This document shows positions 22,725 through 30,244 of a stretch of 64,000 nt of DNA, in pieces. Origin of the DNA: Nitrospirota bacterium (lineage in GTDB: Bacteria > Nitrospirota > UBA9217). Made by a program: the position numbers and the translations under genes. The notes beneath the pieces were generated by a model that saw only the letters and a list, made by a program, of their open reading frames with translations, had not been told where the DNA came from and ran no database searches. Every line of letters begins with the position of its first letter. The stretch's first letter is position 1. Location: contig CAWCKW010000013.1 in the NCBI GenBank assembly GCA_963796285.1, positions 384,001-448,000 on the forward strand, given 5' to 3'.

Positions 22725-23489
22725 TCACTTTTTCCCGTACCCGTGGTCCGGCGGCAAGTTGTCGCGCTGCGTCTGTTCCACGGCCAGGAAGTCGCACCGT
22801 TCGTTCTCCTGGTTGCCGTCGTGGCCCCTCACCCATGAAAAGCTCACCGCATGTTTTTCGCAGAGATCGAGAAGCCGCGACCAGAGATCGCTGTTCTCCG
22901 CGATCTCATCCTTGTTTCGCTTCCAGTCATTCTTTTTCCACCGGCGGGCCCACCCTTTTTCCATGCCATTGACGACATATTGCGAGTCGCTGTAAACGAT
23001 CACCGAAGACGTTCGTTCGAGCGCCTCAAGGCCTTTTATGCAGGCCGTCAATTCCATGCGGTTATTGGTCGTCCTCTCGAAGCCTCCGGAAAATTCGCTT
23101 CGAATGCCGCCTTTAAACACAACCACGCCGTATCCGCCAGCACCCGGGTTCCTGCTGCACCCTCCGTCGGCGTAGATGACCACGTCCGCTTCGGGCTTGT
23201 CCGTCCGATGATGCGCAAGGCCATCCATGACCGATTTCGGTCGGCGGGACGCTTTTTTTTGCGTGACCGTTTTCTCGGAGAGAGAAATAGGCAGTATTTG
23301 TTGTTTGCCCGCTGTCTTCGCGGACCATTTGTCGAGCCAGGCCTCCGCTTCTCCGCGGGACGCGAACCCTTTGTACTCAGCGCCGGGGAACCCCTTTATC
23401 TGCGCTTCCGCGCCAAGAGCGCCGAACCACTCGTCGTATATTCCCGGCCTGTGGCCTTTGCGGACTGCGTATGATTTATTCTTAGCCAT
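22725..23489 (-). CDS. rnhA: Ribonuclease HI with N-terminal hybrid-binding (Cauli_VI) domain
   Basis: YAVRKG..PGIY..W, DGGCSRNPG, TNNRMEL, SDSQY, WVRGH, NERCD. Confidence 0.95.
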   Translation of the reverse strand: MAKNKSYAVRKGHRPGIYDEWFGALGAEAQIKGFPGAEYKGFASRGEAEAWLDKWSAKTAGKQQILPISLSEKTVTQKKASRRPKSVMDGLAHHRTDKPEADVVIYADGGCSRNPGAGGYGVVVFKGGIRSEFSGGFERTTNNRMELTACIKGLEALERTSSVIVYSDSQYVVNGMEKGWARRWKKNDWKRNKDEIAENSDLWSRLLDLCEKHAVSFSWVRGHDGNQENERCDFLAVEQTQRDNLPPDHGYGKK

Positions 23490-24219: not shown

Positions 24220-24679
24220 ACAGGCCTCCTTGATATAATTATTTTACGATGTTGCCTATCGATACTTCGCAATGTCTAAACGAAAAATCACCACATCTGC
24301 CCTCATTCCTCAAATCCCCTTGCCTTCGTGCCTGATGGCGGGAAGTACTGAAACATGGCGACGCATGTTGCGAGCTGGAGGCACATGGCATAAGAAGCTA
24401 TCGTGGATGGAATTAATTATAGAGCTAATCAATCTATTGTCAAGGATGTTGATTGGTTATTCTGGGTGGTGCAGACGTGGAGAGAGTCGGGTTAGCGCTG
24501 AGCGCGGGGTATTTCAAATGCGGGTTTCGGTTTGTGGAAAAGTTGCGTGCCGTCGGCGTTTTATGACTTTCTCATTTCCTGCCGAACATTTGCGCCATCA
24601 GGTTCACTAATACGGACAGCAACGTGTCTCGTGCATCCATAAGATGAACGCAGTCCCCTGCTCTCCTATCGGCTTTTAT

Positions 24680-27600
24680 TCAAGCAAGTAATGCATTCAA
24701 CGTGTTCTGCAGCTCTTCTATATTATACGGCTTCTTGAGGAAGGCACGGAACCCCTGCTTGCGATAATTCGACAAGGCAGCGTCATCCGAGTAGCCGCTC
24801 GATACGACCGCTACTACATCTCGATCGAGCTCCACCAGCTTGCGCAGGGTCTCTATTCCGCCCATCCCTCCCCGGATGGTCAGGTCCAGGATGACAAGAT
24901 CGAAAGGAATGCCCGCGTCTCGCGCGGCCTGATAGACCTCCAGCGCGGTTTCACCGGATTCCACACAGACAACATCATGCCCGATAGAGGTCAGCAGTTC
25001 TCTCGAGACCTCTCTGATCATCTCCTCGTCATCCATGACCAGGACCCTTGCTTGCCGAGTCGCTGCGACGATGGTCGGGGCTTGCTGTTTTTCCACTGCT
25101 GCATTGGACGCGGGAAGATAAATAAAGAAGGTGGTCCCTTTGCCGATCTCGGACTGTACCCGTATCAGACCTCCGTGGTTCTTGATGATGGAATAAACTG
25201 TGGCGAGCCCCAGTCCGCTCCCTTTTTCTTTGGTCGTGAAGTATGGATCGAATATCCTCGTCAGATGTTCTGCAGGAATTCCGTTGCCCTGATCACGGAT
25301 CGCGATCTCCACAAGATCGCCCTGCAGGTCGGCTGGCGGGACAATCGACGCAGCGGCCATGTTCCGCACCGATACCCGGATCATGCCGCCCAGAGGCATG
25401 GCCTGGTCGGCGTTCAGCACGATGTTCTGGATCACCTGGCCGATCTGGCCCTCATCTGCTACGGCTGTGCGGAGGTCCTTGTCAACGGTTATCTCGTAGG
25501 TGATACGGGAGCCGCTCAGGGCGAACGCTACCGCGTTCTCGATGACCGACCGGAGATCAAGGGCCTTTTTCACCGGCTTGCCGCCCTTCGAGAAGGTAAG
25601 GAGTTGTGTGGTGAGGTTCACGGACTGGTGCAGGGCCTTTTCTGCCTGTGCGAGCATGGCGAGCGACTTGTCCTTCTGGTCGAAGGTGAGTTTGGCCATG
25701 GAGATGAACCCGAAGACACCCTGCAGGAGATTGTTGAAGTCATGGGCGATGCCGCCGGCGAGCGTGCCGACGGACTCGAGCTTCTGCGTCTTGAGCCGCT
25801 CTTCTTCGAGGAGGTGTTTTTCCGAAATATCCACGAGGAACGCCGCGATACAGGGACGTCCGTCATATTCCAATTTGACGGTGTTGATGCTCATCTGGAT
25901 GGAAGAGCCGTCTTTTCGCCTGATCGTCCGCTCCGTGTAATCCAGTTTTTCCTCGGCATGGGACTGAAAACCCGCGGCTGACCGTGACGCCTCCTCCGGA
26001 ATTGCCAGGTCCGTCGCTTTCAATGCATGGAATTCCTGTTCGCTGTAGCCCAGCAGGCGGCAGATCTCCGGATTGGCATACAGGATCTGCCGGGTCTCCA
26101 GATCTGCGACAAGGATGCCCGTGGACGCATGTTCGATAATGGACCGGAACCGGGCCTCCGAGGCACGAAGCGCTTTGTCCTGCTGGATGTGCTCGGTGAC
26201 ATTGCGCGTCAGGCCCAGCATCGCAACGATCTCGTCCTTTTCGTTGCGCAGCGGAACGGCATTCGTCTCCAGCCACACGTGGCGCCCTTTCATGCCGATC
26301 GCCTCGAACAGCAGGGTCCCGCTCTTGCCCTGGAAGACCTGCCTGGTCAGGTCCATAAACGACTGCGAATACTCGGACGTGATCATGGGGCAGATGCATT
26401 GACCTCTCACCTGGTCCAGTGAATCCGCCTGTATCATATCCAGCCCCGCGCGGTTCATCATGATCAGGTTCGCATTCTCGTCAAGCAGTTTAACGCATTC
26501 CGGTTCAGCGTCGATGATCGTCTGGAGCATCCGCTCGCTCCTCCGCCGTTCGTCCTCTGCCCGTTTTCGTTCCGTGATGTCCCTGATGATGTCCCGCGAG
26601 CCAACGATCCTGCCGTTATTAACAATGGCTGATGAACTGACCTCGATATCAACGAAGGTGCCGTCCTTTTTCCGAACTTTACCGATAAATCGCTGATAGG
26701 CCCCCTGTCTCGCCAATTCACTGAACGCATCTTCCGTGCGGGGAAGCTGCTCCGGTGGGATCATATCGCGGATGCTCATCGACAGAAGTTCCTCCCGGGA
26801 ATAGCCGAAAAGCTCCAAGGCGCGTTTGTTGACATCCACATAGTTCTGCTTGTCATCCACAATGACGATAGGGTCAATGGCGTTCTCGAACAGGTCCCGG
26901 TATCGTTCCTCGGACCTTCGCAGGTCCTCCTCCAACCGCTTTCTTTCGGTTACATCCTCGATCACCGCCTGGGAACGGACAACATTGCCTGCAGCATCCC
27001 GTTCTGCGGTCGCTGAAAGAAGCACATCAATCACGTCACCGTTCTTTTTTACGAACTGGTACGAAATATCCTTAAGTACGCCGTCCCGGAAGAATGCAGG
27101 CTGAATGACCTCCTGGGCATATTTACGCGATGCGTCTGTATAGAAATCCGTAATTTTTCTGCCGATCACTTCGCTTCGCTCATAGCCCATGGTTTTAAGC
27201 CAGTAGTCATTCACGTCGACGATAACCCTGTTCCGGTCTATGGAATGGAGCATGACCGGCGTTTCATTATAAAAGCGCCGGTATTTCTCTTCGCTCTGCT
27301 TCAGGGCAAGTTCGGACCGCTTGCGCATGCTGATGTCGGTAATCACGCCGATCAGGCCGAGTTCGTTGCCGTGGACGTCGTGGAGCCGCCTGCATGCAAG
27401 GTGGCCCAAAAACTGGGTGCCGTCCTTCCGCGAGTAGAGGCGTTCAATGTCCACGCAGGGAACCTCGCTTGCCAGCAAAGCCAGCATATTCTTCTGTGCG
27501 GTCTCCCTCTCCGACGGGTGCACATGGTCGACGTATTCGCTCCCGACAAGCTCTTCGAGCGTCCGCCCGAACATCTCTGCCATGCCCCGGTTGGCGTGGG

Positions 27601-28159
27601 TGATGCGGCCGGTCTTGTCTACCAGGCCGATCGCCACATTCGCGGTGTCCATTATCTGCCGCAGCATGGCGCCGCGCTCGGCGATCTCCTCTTCGGCCCG
27701 TTTTCGCTCAGTGATGTCCCGCAGGATCACGAGGGTGTAGTCTTCACCATTCTCCTGATACGAGGAAACATTGACCTCCATGTCGAACGCTGACCCATTG
27801 ATGCGCAGGCCGCGCGTCTCGTAGGCCGTCGGTACTGCCTCGCCCCGTTCTCGACGAAGGATATACTCTTTGATGTGGTCTCGGTTTTCGGGCGCAATGA
27901 GGTCCAGGACCGGTTTGCCGGCAAGATCGGTCCCCGGGGGAAACCCGAACAGTTCAAGATACGCGGGATTCACGAACACATGGATTCCGGCTTTTGAAAC
28001 GCCGATGGCGTCCCGTGAACTCTCGAAGACAGCCCGAAATCGAGCCTCGATCTGTGCGGACCTTTCGGTTGGAACGTCCGTGCTGCGTCGGCACGCGCCG
28101 CTTCGCGCACCCTTGGAGCCGGCGCTATTCTTATGAGAGGATTTCTCCTTGTCGGTCAT
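24680..28159 (-). CDS. Multi-PAS hybrid sensor histidine kinase with receiver domain
   Basis: About 6 PAS/PAC repeats, AHDFNNLL H-box, FDPYFTTK, GLGL, C-terminal REC domain. Confidence 0.95.
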   Translation of the reverse strand: MTDKEKSSHKNSAGSKGARSGACRRSTDVPTERSAQIEARFRAVFESSRDAIGVSKAGIHVFVNPAYLELFGFPPGTDLAGKPVLDLIAPENRDHIKEYILRRERGEAVPTAYETRGLRINGSAFDMEVNVSSYQENGEDYTLVILRDITERKRAEEEIAERGAMLRQIMDTANVAIGLVDKTGRITHANRGMAEMFGRTLEELVGSEYVDHVHPSERETAQKNMLALLASEVPCVDIERLYSRKDGTQFLGHLACRRLHDVHGNELGLIGVITDISMRKRSELALKQSEEKYRRFYNETPVMLHSIDRNRVIVDVNDYWLKTMGYERSEVIGRKITDFYTDASRKYAQEVIQPAFFRDGVLKDISYQFVKKNGDVIDVLLSATAERDAAGNVVRSQAVIEDVTERKRLEEDLRRSEERYRDLFENAIDPIVIVDDKQNYVDVNKRALELFGYSREELLSMSIRDMIPPEQLPRTEDAFSELARQGAYQRFIGKVRKKDGTFVDIEVSSSAIVNNGRIVGSRDIIRDITERKRAEDERRRSERMLQTIIDAEPECVKLLDENANLIMMNRAGLDMIQADSLDQVRGQCICPMITSEYSQSFMDLTRQVFQGKSGTLLFEAIGMKGRHVWLETNAVPLRNEKDEIVAMLGLTRNVTEHIQQDKALRASEARFRSIIEHASTGILVADLETRQILYANPEICRLLGYSEQEFHALKATDLAIPEEASRSAAGFQSHAEEKLDYTERTIRRKDGSSIQMSINTVKLEYDGRPCIAAFLVDISEKHLLEEERLKTQKLESVGTLAGGIAHDFNNLLQGVFGFISMAKLTFDQKDKSLAMLAQAEKALHQSVNLTTQLLTFSKGGKPVKKALDLRSVIENAVAFALSGSRITYEITVDKDLRTAVADEGQIGQVIQNIVLNADQAMPLGGMIRVSVRNMAAASIVPPADLQGDLVEIAIRDQGNGIPAEHLTRIFDPYFTTKEKGSGLGLATVYSIIKNHGGLIRVQSEIGKGTTFFIYLPASNAAVEKQQAPTIVAATRQARVLVMDDEEMIREVSRELLTSIGHDVVCVESGETALEVYQAARDAGIPFDLVILDLTIRGGMGGIETLRKLVELDRDVVAVVSSGYSDDAALSNYRKQGFRAFLKKPYNIEELQNTLNALLA

Positions 28160-28323: not shown

Positions 28324-30244
28324 TTATGATGTGGTCATTACCCCGCCGAACATTTCCACAATCTTGTTGACTAACGCAGGCAGCGACGGGTCCCGTGCCC
28401 CCATGAGAAGAACGCAATCTCCCGGTCTCACTTCGGCCTGCAGTTTGGCCAACAATTCATCGCGACCGCTGACCGCTTGCGCATTGAATGCCACGGCACC
28501 GATGCCATTGATGATGTCCTCCGAGGAAATGTCCTTTTGTGCCGTACCCCCTGCATAATAGATCGGCAGGAGATAGAGCGAGTCATTTGGCCGGAAGGCG
28601 GTCCGAAAGGTTGCGATGTATTCATCCTTTAAGAACCGTGTCGGACCGAACCCGTGCGGCTGGTAGATGGCGATAATGCGGCCGGAAATGCCCCGCGCCG
28701 CGCGGACAACAGCCGCTATCTTTGCCGGATTATGCGCAAAGTCGTCGACCACATGCACGTTCTGCGTTGTCCTGGTCACGGAAAAACGCCGGGCCACACC
28801 TTCGTAATTTTTTACCGCTTCGGCAAGCGCCGTAGGCTCGCATCCGAAATGCTCGCACACGCAAAGCGCTGCGCGCAGGTTTTCAAGATTGTGATCGCCC
28901 GGAAGCGGCAGATGATATTCCGTGTCGCTCTTAAAAAGCTTGACCGAAGTCGGTAGGAGCTCGTAATGGTCCGGCCGCCAAGAGCCGGCACCATTCCGTC
29001 CGAAGCGTACGGTAGCGGGAAGGGACGCAAGGAGCGGATCGTCGGCATTTGATGCTGTCCAGGAAGAGTTTGAAATCAGCGTTTCGAAAAGCTGCTTTAA
29101 TCTCATCGGTGCTTTTGTGGTCTTTGGAAATATTCAGGATGACCGCTGCCTCGGGACGATATTTGACAAGCGTTCCGTCGCTTTCGTCCGCCTCTACCAC
29201 CAAAAGATCCGATCCGCCATGATAGGCATTGCCGATGAGCCCCTGTTTTTCAAGCCGGCGCAAACCGGCGCCGCTGATGAGCGAGGGCGATTTCTCGCAC
29301 GCAGTCAGGAATTCGAATATCATCGCGGTCACCGTGGATTTGCCGCTCGTGCCGGCGACGGCGATGGTCTTTTTCGTCGCGATGAGCGCGCTGAGCAGAT
29401 CGGAGCGATGGACGATGGGAAGTCCGCGGCTATGAGCCGCGGCGAGGTCGGGATTTGATTCTTCTATTGCGGTCGAGACGCAGACAACATCGGTGTCCGC
29501 GCCCACGCCTGAACCGTCCTGCTGAACAATGTCACACCCGAGCCCTTCAAGCGATCGGCGGATGGAGGCGGTATCCTCGCTTGCGTGGAACCGGTCGGAA
29601 CCCGAGACCGTGATCCCCTGGAAGCGCAGGTATTGCGCGAGCGCGCTCATGCCGCTGCCGAAGATACCGGTGAAATGGACGCTGCGGCAGGATCGCTCAT
29701 TGATAACGATGGGAGAAGGTTCGATGTACACGAGCGTGCCTTCTTTTACCATATCAAAAAGGCGAATGACGTCGTGATTGCGGAGGCACACGCACCCGTG
29801 CGAAAGGGGCCTGCCGATCAGGTCCTCGCGGCCGGTGCCGTGGATATAGATGTAGCGCTCATAGGAATCCACGCCCGTGCCCTTATTGATTCCCTGCTCA
29901 AGTCCTTCTAGCCGCAGGATACGGGTCAGGATCAGGTTGTCTCCGGTCTGGCTGTGGTCCCAATCCTCGCCCGCATCCTCGCGGTCCCGGAAAATGCGGC
30001 CGGGAGGCGCACCAGCCCCGAACTTCTCCTTGATCCGATGAACACCGAGCGGCGTTTTGAGCGAGTTCTCCCGATTGCCATTGCCGAAACGGGAGGTTGA
30101 GCAGTCATATCGCTCGACAATGGTGTCATTCATGCAGACGAGAAGCGTTTGCGTCTCGATCGACACCACGATAAAAAGGTCCGCTGGATCGGCCAACAAC
30201 CGTTGCAAATTTTTGTAAATACCGGGTAATCGAGCTGTTTCCAT
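28324..30244 (-). CDS. YkuD (L,D-transpeptidase-like) domain fused to MurC/Mpl-type ligase; +1 frameshift near 29097
   Basis: IYIHGT...SHGC, then GIFGSGMSALA, AGTSGKST, EADESD, DH; C-terminal part (GDHN, DDFAHNP, YQPH) is in the 28324-29106 frame. Confidence 0.85.

Follow-up and report, generated by a model that had tools for sequence, protein, structure and literature searches.

In a Nitrospirota bacterium we find a gene whose predicted product joins a YkuD domain resembling the carboxypeptidase ElsL to a Mur ligase that, judged by its sequence, represents a third, unnamed lineage, MurC-like with a pocket of its own, and is neither Mpl nor the MurC of this genome. The fusion is genuine and not due to chance, and our best reading of it, which we regard as probable though far from assured, is a trim-and-religate enzyme doing the job of Mpl. 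The two reactions predicted are already known; what is new is their union in a single chain and the lineage of the ligase, and a search of the literature outside subscription papers found neither of them described.

A YkuD domain fused to a Mur ligase

The gene lies on the minus strand of the window, by which we mean the whole analysed stretch of 64,000 nucleotides, and comprises the following features:

28324..30244, minus strand: fusion gene, ElsL-like YkuD plus MurC-like ligase, ~639 aa if intact; one extra base splits it in the assembly
29723..30175, minus strand: YkuD / ElsL-like domain, residues 24-174 (PF03734, 82 bits; NF040925 ElsL, 132 bits, cut-off 270)
29792..29842, minus strand: catalytic motif HGT...SHGC, His135 to Cys151, conserved in homologues and aligning with B. 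subtilis YkuD
29372..29680, minus strand: Mur ligase N-terminal (UDP-MurNAc-binding) domain, residues 189-291 (PF01225)
29336..29353, minus strand: P-loop GTSGKS, seen in the translation and present in 119/120 homologues
29096..29098, minus strand: homopolymer at the +1 frameshift, a probable assembly error by comparison with related loci
28393..28791, minus strand: Mur ligase C-terminal (amino acid / peptide-binding) domain (PF02875)
28720..28746, minus strand: DDFAHNPAK motif (HHP in MurC and Mpl), with Asn505 and Lys508 as lineage markers in the alignment
28642..28662, minus strand: QPHGFGP loop, with Gly and Pro in place of HiMurC Arg377 and Arg380 in the alignment
28390..28404, minus strand: MGARD motif with the lineage-specific Arg617 (GAG in MurC, SNG in Mpl) in the alignment

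By Pfam, the minus-strand ORF 30244-28931 (437 aa) carries YkuD at residues 24-174, Mur_ligase at 189-291 and the start of Mur_ligase_M at 296-376, and Mur_ligase_C sits in a second minus-strand frame, 29106-28324 (260 aa). The first-pass annotation had read this as a YkuD domain running in frame into a Mur ligase, and correctly so: no stop separates YkuD from the ligase domains within the 437-aa ORF, and every motif it quoted is present in the translation. Homologues with the fusion exist, as YkuD is joined to the ligase in all 120 best homologues (their source names include Nitrospirota), 117 of which are intact proteins with all four Pfam domains, mostly 635-640 aa long, in agreement with the single chain that had been proposed. 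Among 24 genomes of the same family, the fusion forms one stop-free frame of 643-712 aa in 19, is split across two contigs in one, is reduced to the opening 35 residues, where a contig ends, in another, and has no match in three. It was absent from 16/16 genomes sampled from other families, and when more genomes were drawn, 53/60 of this family (f1) had the ElsL-like domain versus 0/190 others. An assembly artefact joining two separate genes is ruled out by the 120 fused homologues together with the 19 stop-free frames. A plasmid search gave no match at 1e-60, and the ESM Atlas returned generic Mur ligase clusters only.

The YkuD domain exceeds the PF03734 gathering score of 23.4 with 82 bits and contains the His...Cys motif, which aligns with the same motif in B. 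subtilis YkuD; His135 and Cys151 are invariant across 24 aligned fusions, and S[HQ]GC is found in 120/120 homologues. Among named models ElsL (NF040925) fits best by a wide margin, with 132-134 bits across positions 8-159 of the 164-position profile, L,D-transpeptidase models reaching at most 25 bits. This upholds the ElsL-like identity suggested earlier, at a score below the cut-off of 270 bits, a value reached by none of 21 ElsL-like matches in the 50-genome set described below and none of 54 in the Nitrospirota draw; by these scores the domain is ElsL-like and not a filed ElsL. The domain is joined to an ATP-dependent Mur ligase, neither a signal peptide nor a transmembrane helix nor a PG-binding domain emerged from hydropathy of 120 homologues and Pfam, and the earlier claim of a missing signal peptide holds by hydropathy only, the N-termini of the 120 homologues not being hydrophobic. 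A cytoplasmic location of the protein and an L,D-carboxypeptidase activity of the YkuD domain are accordingly no more than what we predict from these features. The two other YkuD proteins of this genome have hydrophobic N-terminal stretches, and their Pfam-matched parts gave no NCBIfam match at 1e-10. The nearest stand-alone YkuD relatives are 170-190 aa long, several of them named from Chitinivibrionales, and such relatives occur adjoining the ligase.

ElsL of Acinetobacter baumannii is described, in the sections of PMC8649774 cited here, as a cytoplasmic Cys-dependent carboxypeptidase that turns M4 into M3 in vitro. With ElsL as characterized in parts of that paper and of PMC8630537, the present domain shares a YkuD fold family without export signal, the catalytic Cys motif and an occurrence where LdcA is missing; it differs in scoring half the curated cut-off (270) and in being fused to a ligase. 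It also falls outside the filter for stand-alone proteins of 105-200 aa given in the same sections of PMC8649774, and since proteins longer than 200 aa were discarded by design, such fusions are missing from the ElsL orthologue search reported there.

A ligase lineage apart from MurC and Mpl

The ligase half belongs to the Mur ligase superfamily, having three domains, a P-loop and a MurC-type fold (Pfam, structural model), with conserved ATP and metal motifs. A canonical murC (566 bits) lies in the dcw cluster of this genome, between murG and murB, which rules out the fusion as its housekeeping MurC, just as the first-pass annotation had argued; in the search for a separate murC and ldcA, the former was found and the latter was not, this 96%-complete genome yielding neither mpl nor an S66 ldcA. 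The earlier label of a MurC/Mpl ligase stands as to a Mur ligase of MurC-like character and fails as to Mpl, since profile score, motifs, fold rank and trees are all against the latter. The intact homologue P0004 scores 287.5 bits with the MurC model TIGR01082 (cut-off 335.1), which a few lineage members pass narrowly (337-346 bits), and 100.8 bits with the Mpl model TIGR01081 (cut-off 388.7). The (S/T)AFFDKRSK insert, EPRSNT and SNG, given as diagnostic of Mpl in the cited portion of PMC3060825, are missing in an alignment with E. coli Mpl.

The amino-acid pocket of HiMurC, following the same portion of PMC3060825, consists of His376, Arg377, Arg380, Tyr346 and His348. Of these, His376 and His348 are kept in the fusion, with Arg377 replaced by Gly, Arg380 by Pro and Tyr346 by Phe. 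Among 150 representatives (the 150 best at 50% identity), both arginines are missing in all 147 that cover the columns: Gly occupies the Arg377 column in 146 and Pro the Arg380 column in 145, Arg in none. The lineage markers are present in 145 (Asn505), 144 (Lys508) and 147 (Arg617) of the representatives, and the lineage signature reads AHNPxK, QPHG[FY]GP and GARD, with both L-Ala-binding arginines gone.

An AlphaFold model built from 146 rows reached a pLDDT of 94.4 and a pTM of 0.91, superseding a first fold from 24 near-identical rows (pLDDT 58.7). Its top matches by Foldseek and VIA were MurC proteins, H. influenzae MurC being the best (Z 38) and Mpl following at Z 29-31, although these matches are taken up by the ligase part and the rankings concern the ligase only. 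In two trees, built from 91 and 31 of 137 rows after near-redundant rows were dropped, with only 2 Mpl rows and a long MurD outgroup, Mpl groups with MurC (support 95 and 96) and the ligase lineage falls outside, its own monophyly being weakly supported because the outgroup is long.

The ligase resembles each of its two relatives in part. With Mpl (TIGR01081; PDB 3hn7, 3eag) it shares the three-domain architecture, coexistence with a housekeeping MurC, the loss of the MurC arginine pair, DDFAH, and gene linkage to L,D-carboxypeptidases, but it scores 101 bits against a cut-off of 389, has none of AFFDKRSK, EPRSNT, SNG and GIxGTFM, and lies outside the MurC plus Mpl branch in both trees (support 95-96). 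MurC (TIGR01082; H. influenzae 1p31/1p3d) is the closest profile (287 bits) and the closest fold (Z 38, rmsd 2.2 A over 434 residues), and P-loop, EADESD, DH and His376 are conserved; in contrast, the score is below the cut-off (335), Arg377 has become Gly, Arg380 Pro, HHP HNP and GAG GAR, the gene lies outside the dcw cluster, and the lineage coexists with canonical MurC in 41/50 genomes. One lineage member, P0259, bears a C-terminal class II tRNA-synthetase-like domain (PF00152), a single case and a possible read-through.

Linkage of the ligase to L,D-carboxypeptidases

Loci of the ligase lineage were taken as the best 80 of at least 599 in GTDB, ranked by likeness to a near relative and biased by that choice; of these, 15 have YkuD fused to the ligase (one of them frameshifted), 11 have it next to the ligase on the upstream side, one has it at a distance of 5 kb, and 53 lack it in the flank. 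On the ligase tree, three changes are required to account for the fused state. We searched the genomes behind 50 of these 80 loci for MurC, ElsL-like, S66 and Mpl genes; canonical MurC was found in 41, an ElsL-like gene in 21 (always fused, adjacent or within 6 kb), S66 (LdcA) in 17 and Mpl in one, all co-occurrence counts given here being drawn from kindred genomes and hence not independent trials. One genome has both S66 and ElsL-like genes and 13 have neither, the two carboxypeptidases being nearly mutually exclusive in ligase-bearing genomes.

A second sample of 301 genomes came from another class, which holds a Micavibrio record and which we take to be Alphaproteobacteria in GTDB. The ligase is present in 36 of them, and S66 (PF02016) occurs in 34 of these 36 versus 38 of the 265 others; it adjoins the ligase in 28/36 (24 of the 30 loci examined, plus four of six by coordinates), and YkuD was near the ligase in none of the 30 loci examined. 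A Kiritimatiellia locus (L074:2-8483) reads oppA-oppB-oppC-oppD/F, ligase, S66 ldcA, and this operon is a complete candidate unit for peptide recycling. True mpl occurs in 3/251 Nitrospirota genomes, all of family f19, in which the ligase lineage is absent, and lies directly upstream of S66 ldcA in all three (L194-L196). The strong point is that the ligase is linked, in different clades, to two non-homologous carboxypeptidase families. The recycling role put forward in the first-pass annotation gains independent comparative support from this linkage to ElsL-like and S66/LdcA genes, and is countered by lineage members that appear able to stand in for MurC in Elusimicrobiaceae, so that the L-Ala ligation it named as a refuting outcome may yet apply; of the overall interpretation, the ElsL-like domain, the single chain, the separate murC and the missing ldcA and mpl remain, and the assignment of the ligase as Mpl does not.

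Proposed function and alternatives

In the mechanism that we favour, a tetrapeptide would enter the cytoplasm, where Cys151 and His135 of the YkuD domain would remove its D-Ala; the ligase would then activate UDP-MurNAc with ATP and attach the tripeptide, Arg617 and Lys508 perhaps replacing the lost arginines of the pocket, and MurF would finish the pentapeptide. Peptide ligation by this ligase is predicted from gene context. Loss of ElsL or LdcA is toxic since Mpl ligates tetrapeptides, as the cited parts of PMC8649774 and PMC8630537 report for Acinetobacter and E. coli, and this supplies a rationale for tying the trimming step to peptide ligation: the coupling would limit tetrapeptide ligation, presumably in order to keep the toxic tetrapeptide out of lipid II. 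An AmpD-type amidase and AnmK were not found in this genome, and the free peptide may for that reason come from periplasmic amidases by way of an Opp-type importer; an AmpG-like match is below cut-off, and two peptide-binding proteins and Amidase_3 genes are present. Compared with the E. coli LdcA plus Mpl and Acinetobacter ElsL plus Mpl pairs, the same two reactions are predicted, but a single polypeptide would carry them both, its ligase comes from a different lineage, and AmpD and AnmK were not found in the genome. Several points speak against this reading: sequence and fold are nearer to MurC than to Mpl (287 vs 101 bits; Z 38 vs 29-31), the ElsL score of YkuD falls short of the cut-off, the Mpl motif AFFDKRSK is missing, AmpD-type amidase and AnmK were not found, the lineage provides the sole MurC-type ligase seen in 59/61 Elusimicrobiaceae genomes, and neither carboxypeptidase was found in 13 of the 50 ligase-bearing genomes or in 36 ligase-bearing Nitrospirota genomes outside f1; the absence of Mpl is itself weak evidence in its favour, because Mpl is rare in these phyla anyway (3/251 Nitrospirota).

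The strongest competitor, which we nevertheless consider rather unlikely, is that the ligase is an alternative MurC adding just one amino acid (L-Ala, or Gly/Ser), that YkuD trims for breakdown or edits precursors, and that the two are linked by shared precursor metabolism only. Its main footing is in Elusimicrobiaceae (we took the family of G071, which contains an Elusimicrobium record, as such), where 59/61 genomes have a MurC-type match of 284-338 bits and none higher. In three of these genomes, in one case on a 2.2-Mb contig, the order in the dcw cluster is murF-mraY-ftsW-murG and murC does not follow; the ligase stands behind dapA-asd-dapB in the loci examined (L103-L108, L109-L112); all six copies examined carry HNP and GARD, MurA is found in 5/5 genomes, and MurD/E/F-like genes are present as well. 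The copies in Elusimicrobiaceae probably do the job of MurC, and because theirs is the sole MurC-type ligase found in 59/61 genomes that keep MurA and MurD/E/F-like genes, some members of the lineage most likely add a single amino acid. That MurC is the nearest profile and fold, that EADESD is MurC-like and His376 kept, and that a stand-alone ligase occurs in 36 Nitrospirota genomes outside f1, in families with neither an ElsL-like nor an S66 match and hence no known carboxypeptidase, point the same way. On the other hand, canonical MurC is kept in 41/50 ligase-bearing genomes, and a plain MurC leaves the linkage to two unrelated carboxypeptidase families and to the Opp transporter unexplained. 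The Elusimicrobiaceae loop, moreover, is mostly altered (QPHAF[TA]S), which fits re-specialisation, and Mpl too accepts L-Ala slowly and, if overexpressed, rescues murC(ts), according to the cited portion of PMC3060825. This last behaviour offers a route by which a broad ligase could take over from MurC, and the fusion ligase probably has a specificity wide enough to include L-Ala.

It is improbable, in our estimation, that YkuD does not hydrolyse free or anhMurNAc-linked tetrapeptide and acts instead on UDP-MurNAc-peptides, proof-reading them or exchanging D-amino acids once a permissive ligase has put tetrapeptide in place. Such an editor would suit a genome in which the classic muropeptide route is incomplete (AmpD-type amidase and AnmK not found), a YkuD score below the ElsL cut-off and the confident whole-chain model (pTM 0.91), which fits a fixed domain arrangement. 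However, the alternation of ElsL-like genes with S66 LdcA across genomes indicates the same reaction for both, ElsL turns M4 into M3 in vitro (cited sections of PMC8649774), and the proposal differs from the trim-and-religate reading mainly in the order of steps. Taking the trim-and-religate reading further, we give an even chance to the joint proposition that this is a third widespread murein ligase lineage, neither MurC nor Mpl, serving stem-peptide recycling in many phyla believed to be without it, that it recruited two unrelated L,D-carboxypeptidases, that the ElsL-type fusion arose at least three times, and that its versatility let it displace MurC entirely in Elusimicrobiaceae.

In bacteria without mpl, recycled stem peptides are generally assumed to be degraded to amino acids, as stated for Caulobacter and Agrobacterium in the cited parts of PMC13046382 and PMC9790009. 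If our reading is true, a non-orthologous recycling ligase, which currently carries the annotation ‘MurC’ or ‘L,D-transpeptidase’, would alter this picture in members of Nitrospirota, Fibrobacterota, Bacteroidota, Alphaproteobacteria, Planctomycetota and further groups. With both steps placed by the fusion on one expressible protein, the idea is testable in E. coli, and the rewritten pocket, with its further change where MurC seems replaced, provides a natural series for studying Mur ligase specificity.

Integrity of the reading frame

Placing one X at the TTT run (29096-98) to join the two frames gives 639 residues, matching most homologues. All 14 related loci have a net one-base gap relative to the window at 29090-29102, and the TTT run is a natural site for an extra base; the single break noted by the first-pass annotation, one extra base downstream of the fusion point, is thereby corroborated. 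One public contig spans the break; it comes from a related strain and has one base fewer there. Among sequencing runs, none contained half of the words looked for. In the same assembly murD, murE and ftsI each change frame (L016, G000:C6, near 9877, 14370, 15410), and so does an Amidase_3 gene (G000:C12:1176756-1177405), whereas a census found frame changes in 4/51 ORFs, at least one being a shadow-frame artefact; assembly errors are present in this genome yet not dense. Because murD, murE and ftsI are broken too, we are highly confident that the extra base near 29097 is an assembly error, and caution is advised with other frameshifts in this genome. A real frameshift in this strain, making the gene a recent pseudogene or leaving a YkuD protein with truncated ligase as its only product, could draw on the spanning contig being from a related strain, on the rarity of frame changes in the census and on two database homologues truncated at another site (P0010, P0011), but it is very unlikely given the frame changes in essential murD, murE and ftsI and in the Amidase_3 gene, the position of the break on a homopolymer, the downstream frame intact up to its stop with every motif kept, and the base missing from the spanning contig.

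Genomic neighbourhood

Around the fusion in family f1, no conserved neighbour with a cell-wall link was found, the commonest neighbour cluster occurring in 7/43 loci. A peptide-binding-protein gene 2 kb upstream in one genome (G008) follows gap-pgk-tpi and was not counted as a link, and a promoter scan stayed at chance level (2 found, 1.5 expected). On the same strand and downstream of the fusion, window positions 24680-28159 (minus) encode a hybrid sensor kinase of 1159 aa, made up of six PAS domains, HisKA, HATPase and a receiver, which adjoins the fusion in only 4/43 loci. Directly after the stop of this PAS kinase, positions 24560-24673 hold a degenerate copy of the last codons and stop of the fusion (73% over 115 bp); similar remnants occur at L173 and L184, and genome G013 has a second partial ligase beside a kinase remnant (L018:6597-8349). 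Such degenerate copies suggest local duplication or recombination. Also in G013, two genes upstream of the fusion (L019:9220-11236), not found at other loci, resemble S11 D,D-carboxypeptidases by their motif. Further along the window, 22725-23489 (minus) encodes an ordinary RNase HI that bears a Cauli_VI hybrid-binding domain at its N-terminus.
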